Shown: positions 4,006 through 42,875 of the stretch, piece after piece
Numbering within the stretch: position 1 is the first letter of the stretch
How the letters are laid out: each line of letters opens with the position of its first letter
From: a virus
Taxonomy: Duplodnaviria; Caudoviricetes
DNA length: 64,000 bases
IMG/VR virus record: IMGVR_UViG_3300038679_000357
Coordinates: 128,001 to 192,000 of that record
Reading direction: 5' to 3' (one strand)
Notes under the pieces: model-generated
The model's database searches: none
Told to the model about the DNA's origin: nothing
What the model saw: the letters and a program-made list of their open reading frames with translations, nothing else
Made by a program: the position numbers and the translations under genes

Positions 4006-7000
4006 TTATTCAGTATCCGGATCTGGATCGACTGGTTTTTCTGACGGAATATCAGCCGTTGGCGAGAAACTGTCAGAAGGCTGAGTTACCTGATACGCTC
4101 CAATCGACGTCTTCCATGTATTTCCAGAAGATTCGTAGTTGTGAGAATACTTCGTTACCCTGAATTTTTTCTTGAAAAAATCAATCTCACTCTCATCACC
4201 CTCATTTTTCTTCAATGAAATAAATTGTCCTGGACGGAATACTGGATTGTGTCCAACTGTATTAAATTCCACCTCAAATCCTGGTCTTCCATGCATCTGT
4301 TGCATCATGTTTACAAACCTATTTCCAGCAACCTCGTTACCAAGATCAGTTCTATCATACCTAACTTCTTTAATGAACCCCAAATAACCTACCGAATCAG
4401 GTTCAGTTAAACTTTCCTTAATTGACCTAGATATTATAAGAGGTGCCCCTGTACCTCGATCAATCGTACGGACAAAAATTGAGTTGAATACACTCGAACT
4501 CAATGTAGAAACCATTTCCAATCCATCAAGCATCAACCTGTGCGGAGCAGAAGTTTGATTGATACTCATGTAATATGTCTCTTTCACATTTGGGTCCCAC
4601 GCTGGATGCACGTAGTTAAACAAAAATCCTCCCGGAATTGGAACCATATGAAGTTTACCCTGCATATCAAAATAAAGATACAACTCAAACCCCTTCATTG
4701 CATTTACGATGCAATCCTTAATAGGCGTTTCAGAAGAAAACCTAAACATTGGTTTATCATAAGCCAATCCTTGTCCAAGGAAATAATATAATGGTCCCCC
4801 CTTCTTTCCCTGAGTCTTATCGACGTCATCCACTGATGATATTCCGGCTCGACCACATAAATCATCAACAGCAGTAAAAATATGCCGTCCGTCATAATAA
4901 GGAGAATTCATTATCGGAATCCCCTCAAGAACTTTCCAATGATCTGCACACTCAAATGTTATATACTCTTCTCCTGGAGCATAGCTACCATTACGACCAA
5001 AAGCGATGCCGGTAAAAACGATATCGCTATCTTCAAACGTAACAGATTCATCCTTACTCCACTTTAACCAGACCTTTATCCCTCTTGCTTTGGATAGATA
5101 ATCACTATATTTTCCACTGCTATTGAATAACCTTAACGATCCAGTAGATTCAATCATGATTGGTTTTGGGCTATCCAACTGCCTAGACGCAGAAAAAGAT
5201 ATAATATCATTACTAACGTCTACAAAATCGTCGGATTGAACTACCGTTGAGGTGGTGTCCTGCGGTTTGTTCGCTGAAATATTATACAGGATAGGAAATC
5301 CAGCATCACCACGCACAGAGGATGCCGCCTCTCCTTGGACCTCATTACCCGAAGGAGTATATGTTTTTGAACTCAGTTCATCCGCCTCAAAGTAAACAAA
5401 CCAAAACGGCTCATTTTTATGCATACCGACTTTTTTCTTTGACCTAACCATGTGTATTCTACCCCATGGATTAATCATTCCGGTATTGTAGTTAGATTCA
5501 GTCATCTCTCGTTTCGTTGAATCCTGACGAGCTTTAGCTTTATCTTCCGATTCAGTCATATCTACTTCCATATACTCACGGAAAATAGCCCCATACATTC
5601 TACTTGCCTTCCCATTCCCCTTTGCAGATTTCTGATCGTCATTTGGAACAACCATTGAAACCATCGTACCATCTGCACAATCTCCAGCACGAATTCCAGA
5701 ATTTTTGTCATCTGTGAGAGGGTATTTATGCCCTTCATACCCAGTGTTTCCCATTTCGGGAAGGGTCATCCATCCTCTTTTCTTAAAGGTCATATGGCAC
5801 GACAACACCGAAGACTTACATCCATATCCATACACCGACAATCTAGGCGTCTTTAAATTGAATGGAATCATGGTGTCTTTGCTGCCAGTAATAGTAATGG
5901 AATGATACTTGTCTGGTCCGCTATAAATGCACAATCTCCCCATAACACTCATGAAACCAACCTTAATTTCTCCACCGCTAACAAAATTTTCAACCAGCCA
6001 TGGCGCATTTATGTCAATTTGCTGGTATACACTTTGTGCTTCACTTCCCTTTGATTTATCTGATTCCTTGCCAGACTTTCCAGATCCTGCAGCCTGTGTC
6101 TGCGCACCACTAGTTCTTCCTCCAGAAGATCTCTTACTATCCTTTTTTGATGCATCAGCGTTACGAGCCCGATACTCATAATTGACAAAAGTTCTTCCAG
6201 TATTTTCTATAACCAATTCAACAAACCCGATAGAATCACCAGAAGTTGTTCCACTTCCATTGTCTCCTTCAGATTCTGAAATCACAATAGATAAAAGGGA
6301 AACCGCCTTACTGTCTTTTGGAATATTTATCGCATCAGGACGAATGACAACCCAAAAAGGATGCCCCTTGTCCTTAAACGGCGAAACCGTCTCGATCCCC
6401 CACCACACTCCAGCCTCAGCTTCTACCTGTCGAACAAACGACGAATTGTATGTTTGAACGATATCTTTTGTGTCATTTTCTTCCTCTTTACTATCCTCAG
6501 CTTTTTCACTATCATCTGGCTGAGATTGAGCTTGATCATTTTCGCTTGGCTTCTCTGCTACGGCATCTTCCCTATCCTCGTCAATATACCCAGTGCCTCT
6601 ATACGTGATTGGCTGCGCGTCATAATCCTTATCGGAATACCTTTCTGGAGACACACTTTCAAACTGACTTATCCATTTCTGTCTATTTCTGCGCAATACC
6701 GCATCATCCATATTCTTCAAATATGTTTTCATGTATACTGACTTTACCGAATCAAACGGGTTGACGCCATTGCTCGCAGCAGTCGAAGATGTAGAACCAC
6801 TTGAATTGGCTGATGCTTCAGGAGTTGCCGTTGGTGTCGTTGGTGTCGTTGTCGTCGTTGTCGTCGTTGTCGTTGATTCTTGATTTCCGACCTGTTTCCA
6901 GTAAACATCAGTATAATTCGTATTTGACGCATTGTTTCTATCAAGCATAAAATTATCAATAGGCTCAAATATCGGCTGAGGAATGACACACCCGCTCAAA

Positions 7001-7188
7001 ACATCACCATTCTTAGAATAAGCCATGAGAGCGGTAGTATTATACGAAATTGAGTTATTACTTCCGTCATTTATGGTAACTGCCCAGGTGAAATTTTTTC
7101 TTAGCTTTGCGGTATCCTTGATGACGCCAGGAATATCATTGTAGAGACGTGCCCTGATATGCGCTTTTCCGAGATCAACATACGACAT
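4006..7188 (-). CDS. Baseplate hub / tail-tip protein (Tal/gp27-like C-terminal half) with Thr/Ser-rich and acidic linkers
   Basis: The C-terminal half has the hub pattern (VDVSNDIISFSASR...GSLRLFN...VFTG...ITFECAD...LYLYFDMQGKLHM...EFNTVGHNPVFRPGQFI...FRVTKYSHNY...WKTSI). Position is two genes after the tape measure. Confidence 0.7.
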   Translation of the reverse strand: MSYVDLGKAHIRARLYNDIPGVIKDTAKLRKNFTWAVTINDGSNNSISYNTTALMAYSKNGDVLSGCVIPQPIFEPIDNFMLDRNNASNTNYTDVYWKQVGNQESTTTTTTTTTTPTTPTATPEASANSSGSTSSTAASNGVNPFDSVKSVYMKTYLKNMDDAVLRRNRQKWISQFESVSPERYSDKDYDAQPITYRGTGYIDEDREDAVAEKPSENDQAQSQPDDSEKAEDSKEEENDTKDIVQTYNSSFVRQVEAEAGVWWGIETVSPFKDKGHPFWVVIRPDAINIPKDSKAVSLLSIVISESEGDNGSGTTSGDSIGFVELVIENTGRTFVNYEYRARNADASKKDSKRSSGGRTSGAQTQAAGSGKSGKESDKSKGSEAQSVYQQIDINAPWLVENFVSGGEIKVGFMSVMGRLCIYSGPDKYHSITITGSKDTMIPFNLKTPRLSVYGYGCKSSVLSCHMTFKKRGWMTLPEMGNTGYEGHKYPLTDDKNSGIRAGDCADGTMVSMVVPNDDQKSAKGNGKASRMYGAIFREYMEVDMTESEDKAKARQDSTKREMTESNYNTGMINPWGRIHMVRSKKKVGMHKNEPFWFVYFEADELSSKTYTPSGNEVQGEAASSVRGDAGFPILYNISANKPQDTTSTVVQSDDFVDVSNDIISFSASRQLDSPKPIMIESTGSLRLFNSSGKYSDYLSKARGIKVWLKWSKDESVTFEDSDIVFTGIAFGRNGSYAPGEEYITFECADHWKVLEGIPIMNSPYYDGRHIFTAVDDLCGRAGISSVDDVDKTQGKKGGPLYYFLGQGLAYDKPMFRFSSETPIKDCIVNAMKGFELYLYFDMQGKLHMVPIPGGFLFNYVHPAWDPNVKETYYMSINQTSAPHRLMLDGLEMVSTLSSSVFNSIFVRTIDRGTGAPLIISRSIKESLTEPDSVGYLGFIKEVRYDRTDLGNEVAGNRFVNMMQQMHGRPGFEVEFNTVGHNPVFRPGQFISLKKNEGDESEIDFFKKKFRVTKYSHNYESSGNTWKTSIGAYQVTQPSDSFSPTADIPSEKPVDPDPDTE
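6829..6875 (-). repeat. Short tandem repeat encoding a poly-Thr/Pro tract (STTTTTTTTTTPTTPTAT)
   Basis: Plus strand has gttggtgtc x2 followed by gttgtcgtc-type 9-mers. Confidence 0.85.
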
Positions 7189-20326: not shown

Positions 20327-20358
20327 AAAAAAGGAGAGGCGGCATATGCCGCCCCTCC
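20327..20358 (-). terminator. Rho-independent terminator after the tail tube gene
   Basis: Minus strand GGAGGGGCGGC-ATAT-GCCGCCTCTCC followed by TTTTTT; one G.U pair forms only in the minus orientation. Confidence 0.8.
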
Positions 20359-20379: not shown

Positions 20380-21297
20380 TTAGAGAACGAATTCGACGCG
20401 CCCTTTTCCATGGGTGGTAACACCCTTGAAATTGATCGTCGTAACGATAGGTCCAATCTGGGATTCTGCCGTTCCCCTTGCAAAACGGACTGCTGCATAA
20501 ACCCTGAAATTCGCACCGATATCGAAGCGAATTGGGTATGCGTAATCACCGTCGTATTCATCCCAGAAATTAGCACCTTTGCCAGGATCGCGACTTGACT
20601 GTATGCCACCATCGCCAGCATAGGATGTGATCGATCCTTCTACGTTCTTCATTCCCTCAACCAGATCTCCAAACAGATCCGACTGTCCAAGAACGAATTG
20701 ACGCTGGAGGTTGTTCGATGCAGTAAACTGGAATGCCTGCAACCCATCCATATAGTCAAGTGTTTCGTAGACTGAATTCCAGTCTGCGTCATCATCGCGT
20801 TTAAGAACTGGGCTACCACTATTCTGCAGAATGCGGAACGACGACTTGTCCCATGTGACAAGTTTTTCACCCTTCGTAAATCCAGTCATATCGACTGGGT
20901 CTACGTCAAGCAACTTTGTTCCCATGATGTCAAGTGTATAGTTGACGACTTCACCAGCAGTCACATTGAATGTGAATTGGTTTAATCTGCAACCAGCAAA
21001 CGCTCTAGTAAATCCATCGAAATACTTGACGTTAATTGTAACGCCATCCTCGTAATTAGCTTCGAGGTAGTCGATGAACTCGCCGGTACTCTCAGTAACG
21101 GGTCCGTTGATTGATCCAGCCACTTCGATTTTACCGAACGCCCACGCATTGTGGGTTTCGTCACCCATGACCATGTCAGGGGCTTCGATCTGCTGTTCGG
21201 CGTTCAAGGAGCATGTATTGAACCTGATCTTCAACTTCGTGAGATCAGGACTATCAATCTGTGCGTAGCCCCTGAATCCTGGTTTAATCATAGCCAT
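20380..21297 (-). CDS. Major tail tube protein (305 aa)
   Basis: Beta-rich tube pattern (GKIEVAGSINGP; FAGCRLNQFTFNVTAGEVVNYTLDIMG; FQFTASNNL...EGMKNVEGSITSY). Strong GGAGG Shine-Dalgarno, own terminator, and position upstream of chaperones and tape measure. Confidence 0.8.
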   Translation of the reverse strand: MAMIKPGFRGYAQIDSPDLTKLKIRFNTCSLNAEQQIEAPDMVMGDETHNAWAFGKIEVAGSINGPVTESTGEFIDYLEANYEDGVTINVKYFDGFTRAFAGCRLNQFTFNVTAGEVVNYTLDIMGTKLLDVDPVDMTGFTKGEKLVTWDKSSFRILQNSGSPVLKRDDDADWNSVYETLDYMDGLQAFQFTASNNLQRQFVLGQSDLFGDLVEGMKNVEGSITSYAGDGGIQSSRDPGKGANFWDEYDGDYAYPIRFDIGANFRVYAAVRFARGTAESQIGPIVTTINFKGVTTHGKGRVEFVL

Positions 21298-21321: not shown

Positions 21322-21648
21322 TTAGGAGGAGAAGTCCATCGCGGTATTCGGCTGTCCGGGGATACCGTGTACCATCCTCATGACGTAGTCATTTACGGCT
21401 TCGCCCAGACTGTCATAAGAAGTGGTTGAACCATCATACTTTGACGTACCAAGGACGAGGTCGCCTTCGCCAGTTATAACAAACGGATTAATCGTCGTAC
21501 CAGCCTTCGTCCTGGCGCTAACCGTCAACTTCAGATAGGTATCGAGAACTCCGTCGGTTTGATCAGCCAAAACTCCCTGTTCCGCGTCCAACGTGATATT
21601 CTTCTGCCTTCCAGTGGAAGGATCGAAGACCTTAATCGTGCTTGCCAT
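21322..21648 (-). CDS. Small virion protein co-transcribed with the tail tube (108 aa)
   Basis: GGAGG Shine-Dalgarno before MASTIKV; GC-richer codons like the tube and capsid genes. Confidence 0.6.
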   Translation of the reverse strand: MASTIKVFDPSTGRQKNITLDAEQGVLADQTDGVLDTYLKLTVSARTKAGTTINPFVITGEGDLVLGTSKYDGSTTSYDSLGEAVNDYVMRMVHGIPGQPNTAMDFSS

Positions 21649-21710
21649 ATTTTTTTCCTCCATTATCCCATCCTTTCGGATGGCAAATTTCGTTCTTTAT
21701 CAAAATACTA

Positions 21711-23138
21711 CTATGTGAACACAATTCCCTTTTCCATCGAAGCTAATAAAACAATAGCTCGATGAATATAGGTATGCGCTCTTGCGACCTCTTTCGATTG
21801 CCTACCTGCAATTTCCTTTGATAAATCACCCTTAGAGAGTAAATAAACTGCCTCTGCCATAGAATCAGCATCGGAAACGCATGAATTACCGTAAATTTCT
21901 TCCACCTCCCACCTATAATCTGTCAACAAAGCAGAACCACAAGCTGGAGCGTCATAACATCTTGGGTTCATACTTTCGGCACGAAGATTAAATAATCGAT
22001 TATCAGTAGACTCCTCTCCATTCGAATTCCGAAAAAGATTAATACAAATCCTCGATGACGCTTGGGCAAGTAACGTATTATCTGTCGTAAACTCTCCGCG
22101 AACAAAGAACGGCATATCAACAATGTCCGCATCCTTACACGTTCCACCAGCAAACATCTTCAAACCAGCCTGCATACACATGTCGTGAACTGAAATCAAC
22201 ATTTTTTTTCTTTCCGGATAGACCGCACCAATAAAACACACGTCATATTGCTTGCCGCCCATAGACTCAGCCAACTTCATTGCTGATGAACAGCGCTTCA
22301 TGTCAGCAGCCGTCGGAAGATAGTTGACGCCAAATCCCTCAGCTACAGAGATTTCATTTGTCATGATATGGTCATAATACGAATGGATTGAAGTTGATAT
22401 GTCCAAAGCATACGGATCTTCCGTAGAAATAACCACTTTTTTCAAACCACAAGACTCCAGTAGCCACCCAGGTATGGACAAACCATCTGTGACTACAATA
22501 TGAGTGTAGCCATTTCTTTTATCAACGCATTCAGCAAGCAACATTTTCAGCACAACATCTGGAACAAAAAATCTACGCAATAAATCGTACTCAAATTTAC
22601 CATACTTAACCCCGATATCGGAAAACGCCGACACATAGGCGTCAAATACAGCTTTCGTACCCCATCCAAGTAAACCACTAACAAAAAGCGGCTTAAATCC
22701 ATCAATCAAAGAAATAGAAGGGTTCTTGGATGCGATATAATTGAGCCACAACGAACCAGCGTATTTTAATGCTCCAGAAACTGCATGAACTTCAGTGATC
22801 ACAGATGGAGATGGGTGAGAAGCGTGGAGTGTTTTTACGTCTGGAGAAAAGAATTTTCTCTGTTTACCAGCAATCACGGCAAGACGTACCATAGCTGCTC
22901 CAAAATCACTTGGAATAGACTCAGGGACGAAAGATGTCGGAATACACATCCAACCGTCTGGGATCGGCAACCCCATTCCATACGGTAAAGACCTAACATT
23001 TCCATGAGGAACACACCCCTCATAACCAATACAAAATGCAGACTTACATCTGAATGGCTCTACGCCATCCCAACTCATATCTGGAGACAAAGATGGAGAA
23101 GCAAAGATGGAATATTCTCCAAGCTCAATTCTATGCAT
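21711..23138 (-). CDS. Glycosyltransferase, CgeB / Glyco_trans_1_2-like (GT-B)
   Basis: STEDPY, YDVCFIGAVYPERKKML, ICINL, MNPRCYDAPACGSALLTD motifs. Confidence 0.75.
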   Translation of the reverse strand: MHRIELGEYSIFASPSLSPDMSWDGVEPFRCKSAFCIGYEGCVPHGNVRSLPYGMGLPIPDGWMCIPTSFVPESIPSDFGAAMVRLAVIAGKQRKFFSPDVKTLHASHPSPSVITEVHAVSGALKYAGSLWLNYIASKNPSISLIDGFKPLFVSGLLGWGTKAVFDAYVSAFSDIGVKYGKFEYDLLRRFFVPDVVLKMLLAECVDKRNGYTHIVVTDGLSIPGWLLESCGLKKVVISTEDPYALDISTSIHSYYDHIMTNEISVAEGFGVNYLPTAADMKRCSSAMKLAESMGGKQYDVCFIGAVYPERKKMLISVHDMCMQAGLKMFAGGTCKDADIVDMPFFVRGEFTTDNTLLAQASSRICINLFRNSNGEESTDNRLFNLRAESMNPRCYDAPACGSALLTDYRWEVEEIYGNSCVSDADSMAEAVYLLSKGDLSKEIAGRQSKEVARAHTYIHRAIVLLASMEKGIVFT

Positions 23139-24171
23139 GAAGCATCTCCAATAACGTTTGATATACTATAGGGGCTGTAATCTTTTGCATACATCCATTT
23201 TTATCTTGCGACAAACAAAAAGATGAGCTTACAGCCGGACCTTCGCACGCCTGACATTTTCCAATTCGTATAATCTTAGAAAACCTTCCACCATGATCCC
23301 ATCGACGAGAAACCGCCCCCTTCAGTAAGATATATTTCGGATGATCTATAAAAATTGCCGCATGAGCTGGCCACGAGTCAGTACCAATGTAAACGTCAGC
23401 TCGACTCAATAGGTATAAATAATCCTGAAACATAGCATCGCGACCAATTACGTCATAATGCGGAATGATGCCATCACAAAAAACTTTTTGCCCACCAGAC
23501 ACAAATTGAATTACTGGCAATCCCAACCCTTCAACCATCGAATATAATTCTCTCCATCTATCAACAGCCCATGCCTTCAATGGATAGGCGCTTTGACCAT
23601 TAATTGGAGACCTACTGTCATGAAAAATAATAAATCTCTCTGGAAGAGATATAGATAAATTTCTTTGCCTGGTGTATTCGTATATCGGAATCGACACTCC
23701 ATCATAGCTGCAATTCAATCCAAACCTATGCCAATCAGAAAAATAATCATCCTCTGAATTGAAAAGTCCAATTAAACTTGATGGAGAAATATCGTAAACT
23801 GAGTTGATTTTCACTCCCATTTTCTCAGAAAGAGCCAAAACGTATTTTTTCCCATATTCTCGGCACAATTCAACTGACGAGTCTTTAACCGGGAAGAAAA
23901 AGTTCAACTCGCCATCCACACTCTTTCTGAATTTATTGAATACGATAAAATCAATTTTAGGATGCAATCGAGATATATAGTCACGATCTCTAAACTTAGA
24001 GATATCTGACCTGACAATGTCAGATACGAACTCCATTCCTTGATATACTTGCGGAACCAAATGATCACAGTAAAAAACAGTCACCTCACCATACATGTCA
24101 TGTAGGTTTCGCACAACAGAAGTTCCAAGTATTGCATCGCCGATCCCGCCGGTTTGAAAGAAACCGATCAT
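23131..24171 (-). CDS. Glycosyltransferase family 9 (heptosyltransferase-like)
   Basis: GGIGDAILGTSVVRNL, YPLKAWAVDRWREL and ADVYIGTDSWPAHAA match GT9 signature segments. Confidence 0.8.
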   Translation of the reverse strand: MIGFFQTGGIGDAILGTSVVRNLHDMYGEVTVFYCDHLVPQVYQGMEFVSDIVRSDISKFRDRDYISRLHPKIDFIVFNKFRKSVDGELNFFFPVKDSSVELCREYGKKYVLALSEKMGVKINSVYDISPSSLIGLFNSEDDYFSDWHRFGLNCSYDGVSIPIYEYTRQRNLSISLPERFIIFHDSRSPINGQSAYPLKAWAVDRWRELYSMVEGLGLPVIQFVSGGQKVFCDGIIPHYDVIGRDAMFQDYLYLLSRADVYIGTDSWPAHAAIFIDHPKYILLKGAVSRRWDHGGRFSKIIRIGKCQACEGPAVSSSFCLSQDKNGCMQKITAPIVYQTLLEMLHA

Positions 24172-24174
24172 AAC

Positions 24175-25041
24175 TCACCATTCGTCTTCCGACTTCGCAA
24201 TAAATAACCCATATCCGACATCAGGTTTTGCTTGAAGAAAATCAGAATAATTATCATCCGTAAACAACCCGGATATATCTCCATTGTACAAGCCCCATTG
24301 CGGATGTGCATCAGCATGCTCATCAACGAGAATTTGACCAGCGGCGTTTGCCCCATGCTTAAAGTCAAGAACTGGAAGACCATGAACGACTTCGTAGCTG
24401 TCAACTATATCTCCTGAACCTGCTTCTCCATTATCAAACTCTCTTGGAACTGGCTCTAAAATTCCGGTTGACTTGAACCTTATTTTTGTGTTGAAATGGG
24501 AATGCAGAGCACTGATCTTCGCGGCGTACCTGCTCAGATGCCAAAAATGGATCTTTGGCTTGAAAAACCCATCTCTGTCTGCAAATACATGATCATAATA
24601 AACGGAATAATCCACGCCATTCCTGATTGGTGCTGACATTGCCTCAACATACCCAGGAGGGTACATAACATCATGTTCCCATAAAATAACTGGTTTGTTT
24701 CGGTCTACTTGAGATATTTCAAGGGCGTGAACAATCTGAGACAAAATAGTTTCTGGTGAATATACCAACATACCAGTGACAACATTAATAGCGCTCCTCG
24801 GAAGTGAAACTTTCAAGTCAAACTTACCCATGAACGACGCCAAATGTTTATTGGGCTCGTCATTAACCAGACCGTCAAAATCAACGGAACAATTGGTCGT
24901 CCTGTCGGAGACAGGCATATGAGAAGATATCACCAAGCCATATCCATATGACGAAGCTGCATTAATCGCGGACGTCAGCGTTTTATGGAGAAGGGGTTTC
25001 GGAAGCAGGCAATTCGTATAGAAGACGATCAATCCATCCAT
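24175..25041 (-). CDS. Putative GT-A fold glycosyltransferase
   Basis: IVFYT N-terminus, VILWEHDVMYPPGY (DxD-like) and DFKHGANA; lies in the glycosyltransferase cluster. Confidence 0.5.
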   Translation of the reverse strand: MDGLIVFYTNCLLPKPLLHKTLTSAINAASSYGYGLVISSHMPVSDRTTNCSVDFDGLVNDEPNKHLASFMGKFDLKVSLPRSAINVVTGMLVYSPETILSQIVHALEISQVDRNKPVILWEHDVMYPPGYVEAMSAPIRNGVDYSVYYDHVFADRDGFFKPKIHFWHLSRYAAKISALHSHFNTKIRFKSTGILEPVPREFDNGEAGSGDIVDSYEVVHGLPVLDFKHGANAAGQILVDEHADAHPQWGLYNGDISGLFTDDNYSDFLQAKPDVGYGLFIAKSEDEW

Positions 25042-25050
25042 CTTTTAATC

Positions 25051-25974
25051 CTAAGATTTGCTTACTTGTGGGAATCCATGTTCATCGATATTCTTGCCGA
25101 ACCACGTCAATTTGGCAGCCTTAAAAAGTGTGTTGTTCTTAGAAACAGTACCCCATTCAACATCCGTAGTTCTACTGTCGTACATATAGGCAACACGACG
25201 AAGAAATTTTGCCTTGTCGGCAACTCTATACGAATTATACCTAATGCGATTCAACCTAAGCTCAGTCGGACCCATGACCTCAACGATACTGAAGTCTATC
25301 TCAGCACTATTATTGTCCTGGACCTCATATCTTGCCTGACCATCAGCCTGCCAAGCTGTTGTATCTGGAATAAAAACACGGTCTCCAAGTGGAGATAAAT
25401 CGGAAATCAATGGAGTTGTGTCATTAACAACATCAAGGTGAATATTCTCATTCAACAAGCGATAAATACAATCACCATACTTCATCACTACTCGTAACGC
25501 ATTCTCATGAGCGTCAGATTTTACATAGCACATGATAGATATGCTATGATTCTCGCTCAGCCCACCTTGAACGTAAAGCCATTCGTTATTCAATGAAACT
25601 GGCTCAACAGTTACGACTACTCCAGTATTAGGAATAACCTCTCTATCACCAAAAAGAACCCCGTTTTCAAACAAAGGGATATTACCAATCGCCTTCTGTA
25701 TGACAGCGGCGTCAGAAACTCTGAAATCTCGCCCAACCGGATTAAGCAAAACGATATGATTTGTGTCTGTTTTCGTCAATACGGTGTGATATTCCATTGC
25801 TCCGCCGCTATTATCCATCAGAAGAATCTCATTTGCGCCATCAAAGCGGAGAGTATCGTCGACCATAATGTCTTGACTGCCAGCCATAACGTCTGCTATA
25901 AAGGGGGTTCTCGCAACGACATTTTTCTGGATCAATCTTATGATGCCGTCAACTACTTGTTCTGCTGCTATCAT
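25051..25974 (-). CDS. Probable tail terminator / neck completion protein with inserted beta domains
   Basis: ENHSISIMCYVKS...ENALRVVMKYGDCIYRLL helix-strand pattern; position between adaptor and tail genes. Confidence 0.45.
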   Translation of the reverse strand: MIAAEQVVDGIIRLIQKNVVARTPFIADVMAGSQDIMVDDTLRFDGANEILLMDNSGGAMEYHTVLTKTDTNHIVLLNPVGRDFRVSDAAVIQKAIGNIPLFENGVLFGDREVIPNTGVVVTVEPVSLNNEWLYVQGGLSENHSISIMCYVKSDAHENALRVVMKYGDCIYRLLNENIHLDVVNDTTPLISDLSPLGDRVFIPDTTAWQADGQARYEVQDNNSAEIDFSIVEVMGPTELRLNRIRYNSYRVADKAKFLRRVAYMYDSRTTDVEWGTVSKNNTLFKAAKLTWFGKNIDEHGFPQVSKS

Positions 25975-26191: not shown

Positions 26192-26914
26192 TTATTCCTT
26201 TTCCTGTCCTTTAGAGTATTCTACAGGAACTTTAACGCCGTCATACAACTGCTGGCGAACAAACCGTTTCCCGACATACTGCTGCCCCTTTAGGCGAGTC
26301 ACTCCTATTAGAATATTATCGAGACTTTCTCTTGCACTGTTTCTCATAGTCTTGCCAAAATTACTCACATCAGGAGAACCATCGGAAGAGAAAAGTTTAT
26401 CGTACATGAATGAAGCGGCGAATCTTGCCGTCATTGGAGTAACTGGATCTGGATAAACAAGCATTTCAATGACACCATCACTTCCAGCGTCATATGCATT
26501 CATGGTTGGGCTGGCAAGGGTTAAATGCCTTGTGTTACACTTCATGCCACTACCTTCATCAAAAGAAGTAGGGATATTAGCAATCCGACCAATTTCACTG
26601 CCATTTGTATCTGATAATCTAACGCATTCCCCGACCCTAAATTTCGTAATGTCATCAACCATAACGTCCGTTGACGATGGAAGCATGTTATGGACTATCG
26701 GAGATCTAGCTACAGTAACTCTTTTAAGTGGAGTTAAATACACCGAAGAAAGAGCCGCGTCCACGTGCTGGATGGCAAAAAGCAAATAACGTTCAGCTAC
26801 CTGTACGGAAATAGTGCTCCTGGTCGGTGCCGTTACGCTAGGACCAATAATATTTCCAATCGTTATGTTCTCTGGCAAAATTGCTCTAATATCATCCAAG
26901 CACGCATACGACAT
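26192..26914 (-). CDS. Head-tail adaptor-like protein (Mu gp36 / DUF1320-like)
   Basis: MSYACLDDI...YLLFAIQHVDAALSSVYLTPL...PDPVTPMTARFAASFMYD matches the gp36-like pattern. Confidence 0.6.
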   Translation of the reverse strand: MSYACLDDIRAILPENITIGNIIGPSVTAPTRSTISVQVAERYLLFAIQHVDAALSSVYLTPLKRVTVARSPIVHNMLPSSTDVMVDDITKFRVGECVRLSDTNGSEIGRIANIPTSFDEGSGMKCNTRHLTLASPTMNAYDAGSDGVIEMLVYPDPVTPMTARFAASFMYDKLFSSDGSPDVSNFGKTMRNSARESLDNILIGVTRLKGQQYVGKRFVRQQLYDGVKVPVEYSKGQEKE

Positions 26915-26922
26915 AAAACCCC

Positions 26923-27984
26923 CTATTTGGACTTTTCGTAGTCACTCCTCGCTCTCAAGCACATGCCCTGAGATACAGCATAAAAAGGATTGACTGACAT
27001 CCTCACATCAAGAACCTCAAACGGAAGCTCTTCTTTTGCTAATATAGACTTGAATCTACCAGCAACTCCTGGGATCATAGACGTACCACCAGCAAGAACT
27101 ATCTCGCACGGTCCATCAAACTCACGCTGAGACTTCTTCAACTCACGGCGAATATTAGTAATCGCCCTTGAAATCGTCTCATCATAATAGATGGAAAGGG
27201 CAGCGGCAAGCCTATCTGAAAAATCAATTTTAGCTAAATCCAGCTTCGTTTCCTTGTACTTCGTTACCTTCGACACTGGCGTACCAGTAACCGTTGCCGC
27301 CTGCTGATCAATATAATCTCCAGACTTCGTCACAGAAAATTCGCAAACGCTCAATCCCTTATACGCGCCAGCTACATTGAACATACCGCCACCCATTGAG
27401 ATACCAAAACCAGTAAGAGGGACATCACCATCTTCTGTGCGCATCAACGGATTTGAATCATAAACAACTCCAAGACCTTCGTTCAATGGAATGGCATTGA
27501 AACCGAGAGACGAAAGGAAGTTTTGAATGATCATTTGATGGAAAATGTTGTTTTTCGACGGCTCATCTACAGGATTGGCTGGAACAGAAAACCTTATCGG
27601 TTCTCCATCGAACTGCGGCACGCCAACCAAAGCCTTGATAATGTGGAACAAAAGCTCTTGACTCTGCTTGATCTCCGGGTTAAGCAGTCCATCACGCATA
27701 GGACGCATCACTTCTCCCTTTCCAAGAGCATTTACAAGTGAAAGGGCGTCTTTTCCAATGACGAAATATTTGTCATCACACTTGGCGTACAGATAGTTTC
27801 CTCTAGTGAGTAAATCAGTCGATTCATCACCGGCTGGAATTTCATATAGCATATTGCGACACGTCGTATTAACAAAATCGCCATCCTTTGTCTGCCTGCT
27901 GACGACCAAGTTAGCAGTGCCAACGTCAAGACCAACTCCTGGAAGGTATTGATGCTTTTCTTTTTCGGCTTTTGCCATCTTCAT
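26923..27984 (-). CDS. Actin-like ATPase (MreB/MamK/ParM superfamily)
   Basis: Phosphate-1 GLDVGTANLV, RPMRDGLL, connect-1 PLNEGLGVV, phosphate-2 ISMGGGMFNV, KSGDYID, adenosine motif IVLAGGTSMIPG. Confidence 0.85.
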   Translation of the reverse strand: MKMAKAEKEKHQYLPGVGLDVGTANLVVSRQTKDGDFVNTTCRNMLYEIPAGDESTDLLTRGNYLYAKCDDKYFVIGKDALSLVNALGKGEVMRPMRDGLLNPEIKQSQELLFHIIKALVGVPQFDGEPIRFSVPANPVDEPSKNNIFHQMIIQNFLSSLGFNAIPLNEGLGVVYDSNPLMRTEDGDVPLTGFGISMGGGMFNVAGAYKGLSVCEFSVTKSGDYIDQQAATVTGTPVSKVTKYKETKLDLAKIDFSDRLAAALSIYYDETISRAITNIRRELKKSQREFDGPCEIVLAGGTSMIPGVAGRFKSILAKEELPFEVLDVRMSVNPFYAVSQGMCLRARSDYEKSK

Positions 27985-34319: not shown

Positions 34320-36368
34320 TCACCATTTTTCGAATACATATACATATTCATTTTTCTTGGCTCCATTCTTTCTTTGATAAGAAATAACTGGAGTTTCCAT
34401 AATAATTGTTCTGGATAACTTCATGCAATCAAACGATGACAAAAAATCGGCTGCAACATCATGCTCATCAGACTTCCCAATCGACAATGCAAAGCGTCCA
34501 TGCAAAGATAACTTCAAGCATGCTTCCGAACACACTGGAATCAACCACTCAAACAACCACTTTTTGTAGTCCGGATATCGAACATATGATTGACTTTCAT
34601 CGGCTGCATAAATTTCCTTATCAAAATACGGAGGCGACGTGAAAATAAGATCATATTCTCCCGATATATGTTTCAAGGCATCTTCTGCCGCCTCATTGTG
34701 AATCACACATTTTGTTTTATTAAAGTAAGAAGACATCTTCACTAGCCCAAGACAATTTTCCGACAATGGATCAATACCGGTATACGATGCAACTTCATGA
34801 GCGCAACATCCAAGTAGCCTGCCGCCAAATCCGGCGCAGAAATCAAGAACTCTCGTACTATTATCGCATTCCATGAGGTACATTATCGCCCTAGCTGCAG
34901 AAGGAAGGAAATTTCCAACGGACCGATTGCTACGATATTCTTTCAAGGCGCTTCTCATTCCAGCCGCAGTGCATGTCCCGCCGTACATTAACCTTCTATC
35001 AATCGCATCCATCAACAAATCATCATCATTAAAAATCTCTATTGGAGACAGCGATCCGCGTGTTCCCATGCTGAACATATGCCTTTGAAAATGCCAAATC
35101 ACATCAGTTGACATGGAGTTACATTTTATATTCACGTCATCAGACAGCAAATGACTCTTTGTCCAGTTCTTTATCCTCGACAAAGAGCAATCAACAGCTT
35201 CATCTGACAAATCAATATACGGAAAGCCATAATCTCGATAATGGCAAAATATTTCTCCGACTAGCTTCTTTCTGTCTACATCAGAGAGCGCTATATATTT
35301 ACTTTTTGTTGGTATAGACTCAAGCCTTGGAACAGCTCTCCTAGATATAGAACCATCGATCTTATATCGCATACATTCTATGATCCATGGGCGAATAATC
35401 TCAATCATCCTGCTTGCTGCTGACGGTCCACCACAAAGATAGTAATTCTTCTTTTTCTCCTTGCAGTTCGTAACCATATGTATGTCGAACCTATTGCGAA
35501 GGAACAAAGCTAGGCGCTCATTTTCTGCTTCACTGAATGAGCAGCTATAAATCCTGACTTCAATCGGAGTAGTTCCATCAAACCTCATGTATCCATCGTC
35601 CATCATCCAGTATGCTAACGATATTTCATTCATCTCCGCCAGAAAAGACTCATTTAATATCTTTACTCCATCAATATACGCCATATCCCTAAATTTAAGT
35701 AACTGATAATGGTTCCTGGTTCGAAAACAATGAGATTCAAACATTTTACCAAAACGATCATCATAATTAACAGTTACATCCACGTCAGAACGCACGTGTT
35801 CGGCAAACACCTCATTCAAATGAAGAGAATAAGCAGATTGAGATGGGACATGCTTTACTCGCAATGCGCCACCTTCATCAATGTGCCCATCCCCCATCAA
35901 CAATCCAACAACAACAGATCTCTGAAAAGAGGTCAACGGAATCGTTTCGCGACCGCGTACAAGCCCCTTATGTCCGATCCTTTTAACTCCATACAATTCA
36001 CGAAGAAAACCAATATGTCCACGCGGGATATCATACTTATCGGCAATATCATTCAACTCAAGAAAATTCTCCGCATACTCCTTCTTAAACAACTCCTCTG
36101 AAATATTTCCTCCCGTACGGCAAAACCAATTAAGAAAGGAAACCTGATGTTTTGAATAGCCATGCTCAACAAAATCATCGACCGTCCATCGGTTCTTAAC
36201 TAAAATAGCAACATATTCTCCTGTGCTGGAAAATCTTTTCTTCTTAGAAAAGGAGCCGCTACCATAAAATATCGGACGATCAACGAAGTTAAGCGTAACT
36301 TCGGCGATATTTTTATCCATCCGATCGGACAGAAGAGACGATAAAGATGGTGATTCTTTGATGAACAT
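34320..36368 (-). CDS. LAGLIDADG homing endonuclease fused to an amino-DNA methyltransferase
   Basis: GLLMGDGHI and LAYWMMDDGY (two LAGLIDADG motifs), IRPWIIECMRYKI, then RVLDFCAGFGGRLLG (motif I), YTGIDP and DLIFTSPPYFDKEIY (motif IV). Confidence 0.8.
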   Translation of the reverse strand: MFIKESPSLSSLLSDRMDKNIAEVTLNFVDRPIFYGSGSFSKKKRFSSTGEYVAILVKNRWTVDDFVEHGYSKHQVSFLNWFCRTGGNISEELFKKEYAENFLELNDIADKYDIPRGHIGFLRELYGVKRIGHKGLVRGRETIPLTSFQRSVVVGLLMGDGHIDEGGALRVKHVPSQSAYSLHLNEVFAEHVRSDVDVTVNYDDRFGKMFESHCFRTRNHYQLLKFRDMAYIDGVKILNESFLAEMNEISLAYWMMDDGYMRFDGTTPIEVRIYSCSFSEAENERLALFLRNRFDIHMVTNCKEKKKNYYLCGGPSAASRMIEIIRPWIIECMRYKIDGSISRRAVPRLESIPTKSKYIALSDVDRKKLVGEIFCHYRDYGFPYIDLSDEAVDCSLSRIKNWTKSHLLSDDVNIKCNSMSTDVIWHFQRHMFSMGTRGSLSPIEIFNDDDLLMDAIDRRLMYGGTCTAAGMRSALKEYRSNRSVGNFLPSAARAIMYLMECDNSTRVLDFCAGFGGRLLGCCAHEVASYTGIDPLSENCLGLVKMSSYFNKTKCVIHNEAAEDALKHISGEYDLIFTSPPYFDKEIYAADESQSYVRYPDYKKWLFEWLIPVCSEACLKLSLHGRFALSIGKSDEHDVAADFLSSFDCMKLSRTIIMETPVISYQRKNGAKKNEYVYVFEKW

Positions 36369-39680: not shown

Positions 39681-41381
39681 TCAAGGCTGTATTTCCATAA
39701 GTCTTGATTTAACATTTTCGGCGCATCTCTCCCAATTAAACTCGTCAACTATCTTACGTCTGGCGTAAATTGCCATTTCGGCTGTTTTTTCTCGATTTTC
39801 ATACATCCAGCGCATCTTTTGCGCAATTTCATCTATCGCCCTGTCACTATAATCAACAAATTCCATTCCATGATAAAATGGGCTTATCCACTCTATGGAC
39901 TTATCAACAAGCTTCACTCGATCTGGGCGGACAAGAGTGGCAATATCGGCGTTCAAAAACATACGATGCCCTCCATGATCACTTGCCAACAATGGGACAC
40001 CAGACGCAATCGCTTCACACGCAGGAAGTCCAAACCCCTCTCCTCGACTTATCTGTAAACAGGCGGAAGCGCTATTATAGATTAACGGCATCATAAAGGT
40101 CGGAATAACGTCATCAACAAGAACGAGGTGGGGTTTATCTTTATTTTTCTCTCCTCGAACATAGTTGTTTATGTCTTCAAATATCTTAGCTGACATACTT
40201 TTTTGACCAACAAACCTCGAAACCATAACCATACTTACATCATCTCTGGACGTAAAAGCTCTCGAATAAGCCTTAATCATGACGTCCGGACCTTTACGCC
40301 AGTTCCAATTAAATACACTAAGAAAAACAAACCCCTTTGTTCCACCAGCAAAAAGCACGCTTCTATCACGTGGAGCGTAAGTTTCTGAGTCAACGCCAAG
40401 AGGCATTACACGCATACTTGACTTAACTCCAGAGGCAGCAAAAACCTGTCGATTCCATTCACAGGGAACCCAAATTTCATCAGCCCCAATCAACCTATGA
40501 ACAAGTGTGGGGTGGATTTTATTCTCAGTCTCCATCATAGTGTAAGCAATAACTCTGCCGCAATGTTTTCCAGGTACATTTGTGGCGTAAACTTTAGGAC
40601 TTTGAAGTGGAATCATATTTCTGGAAAGCGCCATCAATTTATCTTTAACTCCTTCCTCAACATCCATGAGGGTTGATATTAAAGATGGTTTCACACATAC
40701 GCCAAGGCGATCGAGATTAAAAACGTACTGACGATTCATATTTGCATATCCACCACCATCAAATATCGGACCTTCCCAGAACACACAAGGCTGCCCAGGA
40801 GATGCCAATATTGAGGAGGGATCAGCGAGAGCTTTATCCATTTCAACCCATTCACCATCAAAACATTGCTCAACTCTCACTAGACGAATTTGCTTATTAT
40901 GAAGTGATTTCTGCACTACCTCAGAAAAATAATCTTGAGCCGACAACACAGCTACTTCACGCTGTTTACCTAAAGTTAACCCAAGCCCCTCAATTGTTAT
41001 TGATGTATCGACAGCACGACCTATGACAAATCGTTTGTCTCCACCTTTTCTAATAGTCTTTGCTTGATCGACAGACGTTACAGGAGATTTTACCGGAGAT
41101 TTAGACTCTTCGTCATCATATTTGTATTTCACGCCTGATTTAGACCAAACGTCTGTTGATGGAACGACATGAAAACGATTCCCTGAAACTGCGGCGCAAT
41201 GTATGCCGCCCACGCTTTTTCCTACCACTTCTATTATTCCAGAGGCAATAAGAGATTTTAATTCAGTTGACTTACTGGCAATTCCATCATCAATATTGAT
41301 GGCTCCCTTAGATGCGGGTGGAACTCTGATTGAAATATCAGAAATCTCAATCCACATTCCCTTCTTATTGACAATCCTCAC
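39681..41381 (-). CDS. GT4 glycosyltransferase with duplicated N-terminal accessory domain
   Basis: FLSVFNWNWRKGPDVMIKAY; QISRGEGFGLPACEAIASGVPLLASDHGG. Confidence 0.85.
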   Translation of the reverse strand: MRIVNKKGMWIEISDISIRVPPASKGAINIDDGIASKSTELKSLIASGIIEVVGKSVGGIHCAAVSGNRFHVVPSTDVWSKSGVKYKYDDEESKSPVKSPVTSVDQAKTIRKGGDKRFVIGRAVDTSITIEGLGLTLGKQREVAVLSAQDYFSEVVQKSLHNKQIRLVRVEQCFDGEWVEMDKALADPSSILASPGQPCVFWEGPIFDGGGYANMNRQYVFNLDRLGVCVKPSLISTLMDVEEGVKDKLMALSRNMIPLQSPKVYATNVPGKHCGRVIAYTMMETENKIHPTLVHRLIGADEIWVPCEWNRQVFAASGVKSSMRVMPLGVDSETYAPRDRSVLFAGGTKGFVFLSVFNWNWRKGPDVMIKAYSRAFTSRDDVSMVMVSRFVGQKSMSAKIFEDINNYVRGEKNKDKPHLVLVDDVIPTFMMPLIYNSASACLQISRGEGFGLPACEAIASGVPLLASDHGGHRMFLNADIATLVRPDRVKLVDKSIEWISPFYHGMEFVDYSDRAIDEIAQKMRWMYENREKTAEMAIYARRKIVDEFNWERCAENVKSRLMEIQP

Positions 41382-42838
41382 GGGTTAACCTCTCGACATA
41401 TCTCTGATAACCTTGAATGAACACGTTCAACGCATAACCGCCAATCAAATTTTTCAACGAGACGATCCCTCAGCTTCACTCCTTTTTTCAATGCGTCAGA
41501 ATGATTTTCATATACTGTACGCATATGATGTCGAAGAGTGTCAATGGCGGTTCTTCCATACTCTGGAAACTGTTGATTTTCATAAAAATGAGAAATCCAT
41601 GACATATTCCGGAATGGAGGATCAGTTCTGCGACTGGTGAAATAGCCATCTGGCGGAACCATATAAGCCACCTCGGAATCAAGAAAATCTCGCTGACCGC
41701 CATGATCCGATGCTATCACTGGAATACCACACGCGCCTGCCTCCATGTACGGCAACCCCTGCCCCTCACCACGTGACGGTAATACGAAGCAATGACAGGA
41801 ACGATATAACTTAGGCATATCTACGTCGGCGGTATAGTCGTTATGCAGGGCTATATGAGGAAGTTCTCCATCGGTTTTATGAACAAGCGACCTAACGTGC
41901 TTAAAATCAGACAAAATTCTCTGCTTTTTACCAGCCTGCCCCTCAAACCTAGTAGACATAATCAGACTGACATCATCCTTTTTTGAAAACTCTTCAAGAA
42001 AGGCTTGGATCATGATATCAAATCCCTTTCGATAGCTCCAGCCAAACACGCTCAAAAACTTAAACGAGCCGCCTGGAAGAGAAATTTTTTCTCCTTCTGG
42101 ACAGAACGCATCAGTATCAACCCCAAGAGGAAGTACCTTTATTGGCGCAAGCACTCCAGACTCACGAAAGACCTCTTCGTTCCATGTGCAAGGAACCCAC
42201 AGTTCGTCAGCCATATTATAGCGATCAACCAACTCTGGATGTATCCTAATGGATGTTTCCATCATTGTGTAAAGTATCTTCCTTCCCGCATGTGCAATTA
42301 CATCGGGAATGGTCATTCCATAAACTCGTGGGTATTTATTCGACAATTTTATCGATGACAATGACCTGAGAAAATCTTCTGTCCGCTTATTTACATTGCA
42401 AATCGTTTCCATGGGAATAGTCTTAATCATATCTCCCATAGAATTAAGTCCCATAATATAGGTTCGATTCATTCTGGCGTATCCACCATAATCAAACATT
42501 GGACCACCCCAATAAGCGCAAACATCAAATGTTTCAGGCTCTGGATCGGGAAGTGTAGGCATCTCTGTTATGTCCTCCAATTGAAATCCCACAGAATGAA
42601 GATCTAAACCAGCACGGCAAACATCATCAGTCATCAATCCTGGAACTTGAGACATATGAGAGAAGGACACGTTCTGTATAGAAACATGGTCAGTAACGGC
42701 AAATCCATCCTCATCAAAGTCAATCGGAGCAATATTGCCAACGACTTGTTTTGATTCAGTAGTTTTTACCCTAGATGCACGCTCAAGCGCCGCTTCGTAG
42801 GCGCTACGTGCTTTTGTGTTCTTTTCATCTAGTTCCAT
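41378..42838 (-). CDS. GT4 glycosyltransferase (paralog of 39681..41381)
   Basis: FLSVFGWSYRKGFDIMIQAF; FVLPSRGEGQGLPYMEAGACGIPVIASDHGG; likely start MELDEK at 42838. Confidence 0.85.
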   Translation of the reverse strand: MELDEKNTKARSAYEAALERASRVKTTESKQVVGNIAPIDFDEDGFAVTDHVSIQNVSFSHMSQVPGLMTDDVCRAGLDLHSVGFQLEDITEMPTLPDPEPETFDVCAYWGGPMFDYGGYARMNRTYIMGLNSMGDMIKTIPMETICNVNKRTEDFLRSLSSIKLSNKYPRVYGMTIPDVIAHAGRKILYTMMETSIRIHPELVDRYNMADELWVPCTWNEEVFRESGVLAPIKVLPLGVDTDAFCPEGEKISLPGGSFKFLSVFGWSYRKGFDIMIQAFLEEFSKKDDVSLIMSTRFEGQAGKKQRILSDFKHVRSLVHKTDGELPHIALHNDYTADVDMPKLYRSCHCFVLPSRGEGQGLPYMEAGACGIPVIASDHGGQRDFLDSEVAYMVPPDGYFTSRRTDPPFRNMSWISHFYENQQFPEYGRTAIDTLRHHMRTVYENHSDALKKGVKLRDRLVEKFDWRLCVERVHSRLSEICREVNP

Positions 42839-42843
42839 GCGCA

Positions 42844-42855
42844 GATTATACAACG
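42844..42855 (-). promoter_or_regulatory. Promoter-like element CGTTGTATAATC, 6 nt between TATAAT and the ATG (leaderless)
   Basis: Third copy of the motif seen at 18765 and 31705. Confidence 0.5.
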
Positions 42856-42875
42856 ACAAAGGAATTGCGCACTAT

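Follow-up and report, generated by a model that had tools for sequence, protein, structure and literature searches.

Why does a very large environmental phage keep genes for glycosyltransferases (GTs) among the genes for its tail? The question arises from a stretch of 64,000 nucleotides, hereafter the window, which corresponds to bases 128001-192000 of the 255-kb IMG/VR virus record IMGVR_UViG_3300038679_000357 (classed as a provirus, 97% complete, assembled from a groundwater metagenome). Positions 21711-25041 of the window are filled by three minus-strand open reading frames (ORFs) encoding soluble GT-fold proteins of 288, 346 and 475 residues, and a first-pass annotation made from the sequence had proposed that these genes serve to glycosylate the virion. 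We find that the three genes share one late transcription unit with neck and tail tube genes, and that the order of this block is invariant, wherever the sequence reaches, in 27 related loci. It is chiefly this fixed place that points to an acceptor in the particle, and we favor the reading, with a probability of roughly one half, that the trio glycosylates virion proteins, probably tail components. What survives of the first proposal is the GT folds, their motifs, the late neck-tube unit and its synteny across the 27 loci; a five-enzyme unit, a heptose-containing glycan and the precedent as it was invoked are not supported.

A GT-A/GT9 pair at the core of the neck-tail module

The GT genes and the neck and tube genes form one late transcription unit (Table 1). 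From the 307-residue gene directly upstream of the GTs to the tube gene, the consecutive gaps are +9, +3, -8, +47 and +24 nt, and those leading to the three GT genes (-8 to +9 nt) agree with the tight packing between tail completion and tube genes described in the first-pass annotation. Just 3' of the tube gene, the unit is closed by a hairpin with an 11-pair stem (9 G-C pairs) followed by a T run, which is the sole strong minus-strand terminator between ~29000 and 20300. The identity of the tube was confirmed by matches to Phage_tube_2 (Pfam, E 1e-14) and phrog_290 (tail). For the 307-residue protein, the label "tail completion" comes down to language-model leads to ESM Atlas clusters of terminator families (Phage_tail_terminator_5, terminator_9 and SP10_terminator), and the 240-residue protein that opens the block has leads of the same kind to Mu gp36, Phage_connect_1 and DUF4054 clusters. 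Neither protein has a Pfam match, and the names "terminator" and "adaptor" used for them here have these leads as their sole basis.

The 27 related loci were taken from JGI, ENA and NCBI metagenome assemblies of groundwater, sediment and marine origin (contigs of 50-500 kb; identity of the GT9 homologue, 31-62%), and seven profile hidden Markov models were mapped onto them. The order found was adaptor, terminator, GT-A (the 288-residue protein), GT9 (the 346-residue protein), an optional CgeB-like gene (the 475-residue protein) with a gene of 107-113 residues, and tube. The terminator-like gene always precedes the GT-A gene, the adaptor-like gene keeps its place in all loci whose sequence extends that far, and the GT-A/GT9 pair is present in all 27 loci, so that the co-occurrence with the structural module that had been suggested as a check is complete for this pair and its order fixed. 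Throughout the lineage, the neck-tail module has the GT-A/GT9 pair as one of its core parts. In some loci, the GT9 gene is followed directly by the tube gene, both the CgeB-like gene and the small gene being absent. The CgeB-like gene is confined to a subclade whose GT9 homologues show 41% identity or more, with one locus at 41% (L029) lacking it, and the small gene accompanies the CgeB-like gene in every locus of sufficient length and occurs in no locus without one. The CgeB-like enzyme and the small protein are an add-on module of one subclade. The block also survives insertion, as a TnpB gene lies between the terminator and GT-A genes in L008 (5808-7091, minus strand). Another TnpB/IS605 OrfB insert was seen in L003 (1-945), and L036-L038 show an unexplained 1-kb gap at the spot of the L008 insertion.

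Ratios of nonsynonymous to synonymous substitutions (dN/dS), which were taken where dS is ~1-2 and are therefore rough, came to 0.07-0.22 across the trio and its small companion (0.08-0.15 for the 288-residue gene) and to 0.04-0.20 for their structural neighbors. The three enzymes are under purifying selection. Within the same genome pair, the GTs are 61-69% identical and the tube 93%. In 50,697 records of cultured phages, tblastn or blastn matched neither the region nor the tube nor any of the three enzymes, and scans of IMG/VR viral contigs with the 475-residue protein and the GT9 profile confirmed no relatives. Among sequencing runs, those carrying this DNA were all groundwater DNA runs, with no RNA run listed. 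PHROGs gave no match for any of the three enzymes, and sequence and profile searches of the PDB returned nothing significant for the three enzymes, the terminator, the adaptor or the 113-residue protein.

The first-pass annotation had joined the trio with two GT4 enzymes at 39681..42838 into a set of five. Both GT4 enzymes were confirmed by Pfam and PHROG matches, and the set does not hold as a unit: the GT4 pair is a separate cluster 15 kb from the trio and outside the conserved neck-tail block, the CgeB-like enzyme is absent from distant relatives, and only the GT-A and GT9 proteins are universal.

Table 1. Window features discussed in the text, with positions counted from the first base of the window.
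Feature	Position	Strand	Basis or remark
Two GT4 glycosyltransferases	39681-41381, 41378-42859	-	Pfam Glycos_transf_1, Glyco_trans_1_4, GT4-conflict; phrog_2170
LAGLIDADG_2 endonuclease and N6_N4 DNA methylase domains in a single ORF	34320-36368	-	
Actin-fold protein	26923-27984	-	Pfam Volactin, E 2.5e-59
240-residue probable head-tail adaptor	26192..26914	-	First gene of conserved block; language-model leads
307-residue probable tail terminator	25051..25974	-	Directly upstream of GTs; language-model leads
288-residue GT-A-fold probable glycosyltransferase, unnamed family	24175..25041	-	Structure model and conserved motif
346-residue divergent GT9-fold enzyme with four-cysteine (Cys4) finger	23131..24171	-	Structure model, motifs, profile
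475-residue CgeB-like GT-B enzyme, clade-specific	21711..23138	-	Pfam PF13524
113-residue protein, no known family	21322..21663	-	Constant companion of CgeB-like gene
305-residue tail tube protein, last gene of unit	20380..21297	-	Pfam Phage_tube_2
Strong intrinsic-terminator-like hairpin closing the unit	20333..20358	-	Just 3' of tube gene
1060-residue downstream tail protein	4006-7188	-	Poly-Thr stretch

Almost all long ORFs of the window lie on the minus strand, and they encode giant tail proteins, a protein of tape-measure size (1404 residues) and the Phage_tube_2 tube. Since no match to Phage_sheath_1 was found anywhere in the genome, a long, non-contractile particle is probable. The moraphage lineage, which is rich in GTs, was considered and ruled out, as moraphages carry T4-type sheath and gp19 tube genes (PMC12619734), whereas the present genome has a tube of the Phage_tube_2 type and no such sheath match. 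Four genes upstream of the GTs lies the gene for the Volactin-type protein, which is kept at the same place in closer relatives (L002-L004, L008 and an NCBI contig of 469 kb) and has homologues of ~30% identity in LR745208.1 and LR756511.1, both of them huge uncultured phages. The window also contains an ORF in which a LAGLIDADG_2 endonuclease domain is joined to a DNA methylase domain, and the edge of the relative L007 carries a LAGLIDADG_2 protein as well.

Folds and motifs of the three enzymes

The 346-residue protein had been called a GT9 heptosyltransferase-like enzyme, and structure, motifs and profile agree with that call although the score against Pfam GT9 (PF01075; 16.1 bits, or 16.4 bits in the genome scan) falls below the cut-off of 22 bits. 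An AlphaFold model built from 30 homologues (predicted local distance difference test score, pLDDT, 92) matched the GT9 structures Veillonella 3tov, WaaF, TibC and WaaC with Z scores of 20.2, 19.3, 18.6 and 17.4, and the next GT-B folds followed at 11.9 or less. When the family profile was run against 1.84 billion representatives, 17 clusters were found at E 1e-30 or better, followed by a gap and then by thousands of weaker matches; all 10 of the matches tested between E 1e-28 and 1e-10 exceed the Pfam GT9 cut-off. D265 never varies among the 30 sequences, and D12, K199 and H270 are each conserved to 90% or more; K199 lies in the motif K199-x-W, and D265 and H270 lie in D265-S-W-P-x-H270, where the Gly of the GT9 motif is replaced by Trp. 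In the alignment with the Escherichia coli enzymes, D12, K199 and D265/H270 fall on D13, K192 and D261/H266 of WaaC, and the motifs align with WaaF and 3tov as well. Four cysteines (C306, C309, C319 and C327), also invariant, form a finger just before the last helix. GT9-fold proteins are common in uncultured phages as uncharacterized predictions. The most conserved stretch of the N-lobe is a long beta-hairpin (residues 75-94, with near-invariant N79, F81, G87 and F92), which has no counterpart in the alignment to the E. coli heptosyltransferases and may be an acceptor-binding or oligomerization element.

The 288-residue protein has no match in the Pfam, PHROG or NCBIfam libraries, and its best PDB profile match, KfiA, is not significant (E 0.026). 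Its structure model (pLDDT 88) has the GT-A/nucleotidyl-transferase fold, consistent with the GT-A-like character first assigned to it. In the VIA comparison of the model, the GTs WrtF, SpsA and TarP tie with the cytidylyltransferases IspD and TarI at Z ~13, and Foldseek gave E 3e-6 to WrtF and GlcAT-P. The named ESM Atlas clusters nearest to the model are all GT2-type, as are most of its structure neighbors in Swiss-Prot; many of the neighbors are viral. In this family, the end of the fourth strand carries an unvarying E122-H123-D124, which occupies the DxD position of GT-A enzymes as a variant of that motif with a putative metal-binding role. The N-terminus does not contain the Gly-rich loop of nucleotidyl-transferases. 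A sugar nucleotidyl-transferase is disfavored by this missing loop and by the GT2-type ESM Atlas neighbors, and because the invariant E-H-D at the DxD site points the same way, the model is best read as that of a probable glycosyltransferase from an unnamed GT-A family.

The 475-residue protein passes the threshold of Pfam Glyco_trans_1_2 (PF13524, the CgeB family) with 44.3 bits against a cut-off of 25, which upholds its designation as a CgeB-like GT, and it has a weak DUF3880/YkvP_N match in addition. Residues 137-472 of its ESM Atlas model align as a two-lobe GT-B body with clusters of the CgeB family (TM score 0.60 by query and 0.77 by hit), and the first ~135 residues are an extra N-terminal domain. 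One full-length ESM Atlas match, which is a lead only, is a cluster combining Glyco_trans_1_2 with Maf_flag10_N, the N-domain of the Maf flagellin glycosyltransferase. In its companion, the 113-residue protein, G78-S79-T80 is invariant. All relatives start at a Met-Ala-Ser five codons downstream of the ORF start, and from these sequences the true start of the gene is probably the second ATG, at 21648. A complex prediction for the two proteins scored 0.00 with the partner poorly folded; by analogy with CgeB and its neighbor, discussed below, the 113-residue protein may be a candidate acceptor or partner of the CgeB-like enzyme.

If the GT folds had been kept but the proteins now acted as non-enzymatic assembly factors or minor tail components, their core position in the tail module would be typical of structural genes. 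A GT9 fold in a non-glycosylating complex does exist, in the form of the GT9-like chloroplast NDH subunit, chains of which (7f9o_6, 7wff_a and 9grx_1) match the 346-residue model at Z ~18. However, the family of the 346-residue protein conserves its catalytic Asp, its phosphate-binding Lys and its D-S-x-x-x-H motif, the E-H-D of the GT-A protein is likewise conserved, and the GTs evolve faster than the tube, which would be unusual for tightly packed structural proteins. We regard a structural role as improbable.

Acceptors, donors and competing readings

None of the three enzymes contains a hydrophobic stretch of membrane-spanning length, and all three are predicted to be soluble, cytoplasmic glycosyltransferases. 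If they act on the virion, they would be made late, from a transcript shared with the tail terminator and tube genes, and would place sugars on particle proteins, probably tail parts, before or during assembly, with nucleotide sugars of the host pool as donors. Within the universal pair, one of the GT-A and GT9 enzymes would start a short glycan on Ser or Thr and the other would extend it, and the 113-residue protein may be the acceptor of the CgeB-like enzyme, as CgeA appears to be for Bacillus subtilis CgeB. That the acceptor is a virion protein is what we infer, together with its identity, the order of action and the sugars.

The candidate acceptors are the tube, the 113-residue protein and the 1060-residue downstream tail protein, in which a run of ten Thr lies within a Thr/Pro/Ser-rich stretch (residues 105-134). 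Judged by its composition, this stretch is plausibly a mucin-like linker and a site of O-glycosylation. The first-pass annotation had named tracts rich in Ser, Thr and Pro in the hub and in a 697-residue protein as possible acceptors; the poly-Thr stretch fits that proposal, whereas the 697-residue protein has only 43% Ser and Thr in its richest 30 residues.

Several observations weigh against glycosylation of the virion. Gene position is context and not proof of a glycan on any protein. The C-terminus of the tube has no Ser/Thr-rich tail like the glycan-bearing tails of the mycobacteriophages. The Z scores of the 346-residue model do not favor TibC, which acts on a protein, over the lipopolysaccharide (LPS) heptosyltransferases, and the Cys4 finger was rejected as a mark of protein-acting enzymes because most neighboring GT9 proteins carry one (97 of the 143 non-query profile matches scanned, mostly uncharacterized proteins). 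The closest characterized GT-A matches, WrtF, TarP and SpsA, act on O-antigen or teichoic acid.

The strongest rival is remodeling, late in infection, of glycans in the host envelope (LPS core, teichoic acid or capsule), because LPS, O-antigen or teichoic acid is the target of the nearest characterized enzymes of the GT9 and GT-A types. The best-known GT9 enzymes are LPS heptosyltransferases, JGI annotation names several homologues of the 346-residue protein "ADP-heptose:LPS heptosyltransferase", and the 288-residue model matches an O-antigen enzyme (WrtF) and a teichoic acid enzyme (TarP). Remodeling of this kind could keep progeny from adhering to debris, or it could prevent superinfection. 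It is harder to reconcile with a neck-tail position that is fixed in every relative, with a transcription unit in which no promoter or terminator sets the GT genes apart as an independent insert, and with three enzymes that have no membrane anchor, and we consider it possible but doubtful.

The first-pass annotation took host donors to be implied by the lack of sugar-nucleotide synthesis genes in the window, and genome-wide searches for four families of sugar-nucleotide genes, which did not extend to a scan of every window ORF, found no GmhA-like, HldE-like or NTP-transferase gene. The sole match, gmd (GDP-mannose 4,6-dehydratase; Pfam GDP_Man_Dehyd, E 6e-121), lies outside the window at 87484-88455 of the genome on the minus strand and qualifies the claim; its product could feed a 6-deoxyhexose to one of the transferases. 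The possibly heptose-containing glycan that had been suggested from the GT9 enzyme does not follow, as family membership does not fix the sugar and the phage has no ADP-heptose genes.

The genome carries at least four GTs beyond the trio, and together with gmd these would suit synthesis of a free or carrier-linked glycan, or glycosylation of a small molecule, with no virion acceptor; most members of the GT-A/GT2, GT9 and GT-B groups use lipid-linked or soluble acceptors. The trio has no flippase, polymerase or lipid-carrier transferase as a neighbor, however, and the placement in the tail operon would be hard to explain, so that there seems little chance of this being the function. One of the other GTs is a second, very divergent GT9-like protein of 562 residues, whose sequence is almost unrelated to that of the 346-residue protein and which has a long N-terminal extension and a Cys cluster of its own. 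Directly downstream on the minus strand is a GT8 gene (370 residues), the pair lying at ~210.6-213.4 kb, in the region ~210585-213818 of the genome (L010 34-2838, minus strand), and a further Glyco_trans_1_2-like match lies at ~100 kb of the genome.

Glycosylation of phage DNA bases as a defense against restriction was also weighed. Phage GT-A and GT-B enzymes that glycosylate 5-hydroxymethylcytosine (5hmC) are widespread and, like the trio, occur in sets, but such GTs cluster with thymidylate-synthase-like or TET-like genes, adjoining ThyS or 5mYOX and replication genes (Pyle et al., bioRxiv 10.1101/2023.12.21.572611). The trio, in contrast, lies between tail genes of a late structural operon, and searches for such a partner found none: the ThyA family gave only a spurious match genome-wide (13 bits, with stops inside), and Tet_JBP gave no match in the genome, a result made uninformative by control genomes that also gave none. 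The 475-residue protein has one weak language-model match to a T4 glucosyltransferase cluster (rank 87), whereas the structure matches are to GT9 and GT2 and not to T4 beta-GT. Action of the trio on DNA is very unlikely.

Relation to characterized glycosylation systems

The first-pass annotation had taken mycobacteriophage GTs in structural operons as its precedent. Freeman et al. (2023), as cited in later work, described virion O-glycosylation for Che8 (gp108-110), Corndog and Myrna, and the likeness lies in several phage-encoded cytoplasmic GTs that act together and are proposed to decorate the phage's own particle. The precedent fails in its details. Che8 genes 108-110 are at the right end of the genome, whereas the present trio lies between tail genes; the Che8 enzymes are a GT2 with methyltransferase, a GT2 and a GT25, of other Pfam families, with no similarity between gp108-110 and the five GTs named above (BLASTP E 0.18 or worse for every pair). 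The mycobacteriophage glycans are reported to be on C-terminal tails of capsid and tube subunits, and the present tube has no such tail. Judged from the sequences, the present case would resemble mycobacteriophage virion glycosylation in its working without being a member of that system.

For two of the three enzyme families, characterized members that act on proteins are known, namely TibC and CgeB. TibC heptosylates a beta-helical autotransporter; it has an N-terminal beta-barrel (residues 1-97), a thumb formed by a beta-hairpin, and a finger that holds iron (C339, C342, C358 and C370), and it assembles as a ring-shaped dodecamer (PMC4358343). Its base, Asp-110, is reported to superimpose on the WaaC site, and Lys-230 is also described as equivalent (PMC4358343). 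TibC and the 346-residue model share a GT9-like GT-B core (Z 18.6, root-mean-square deviation 3.2 over 263 aligned residues), with the Asp base and the Lys in the same motifs. Both have a Cys4 finger before the last helix, and in each 19 residues separate the last Cys from the end of the aligned range, although the spacing in the phage protein (CxxC-x9-C-x7-C) is shorter than in TibC (CxxC-x15-C-x11-C). The phage protein has no N-terminal beta-barrel and opens with the catalytic lobe itself, residue 1 of the model aligning with residue 98 of TibC. The best overall structure matches remain WaaC, WaaF and 3tov, with which the G-D, K-x-W and D-(S/T)-G-x-x-H motifs are common. Unlike the phage protein, E. 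coli WaaC, WaaF, WaaQ and WaaU do not have a Cys4 finger, and the phage family further differs from WaaC and WaaF in its conserved hairpin (residues 75-94) and in being encoded in a tail operon instead of an LPS locus.

In B. subtilis, CgeB apparently adds sugar to CgeA, a small protein of the spore crust whose gene is adjacent (PMC13577073). The phage arrangement is analogous, in that a Glyco_trans_1_2 enzyme gene sits beside the gene for a protein of ~110-130 residues and the putative target would be a self-assembling protein shell; it differs in the extra N-terminal domain of ~135 residues of the phage enzyme. We tentatively suggest, as a specific version of virion glycosylation that is rather unlikely in all its parts, that the GT9-like protein is a protein O-heptosyltransferase or another O-glycosyltransferase acting on the assembling tail, complemented by a tail coat in the style of CgeB and CgeA, and that this activity is a core trait of a lineage of huge, uncultured, siphophage-like viruses that arose independently of the mycobacteriophage system.

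To our knowledge, glycosylated virions are so far established for just a few actinobacteriophages, in which the modification protects particles against antibodies. The present locus shows a different set of GTs fixed in the tail operon across a lineage of very large environmental phages, and what is new in it is the lineage-wide GT-A/GT9 core pair, the unnamed GT-A family and the CgeB-like enzyme with its small partner. If the favored reading is true, glycosylation of the particle would be an ancient core trait of this lineage and not an accessory one, and the protein-glycosylation toolbox would gain two phage enzyme families that are new to it and may use unusual sugars.

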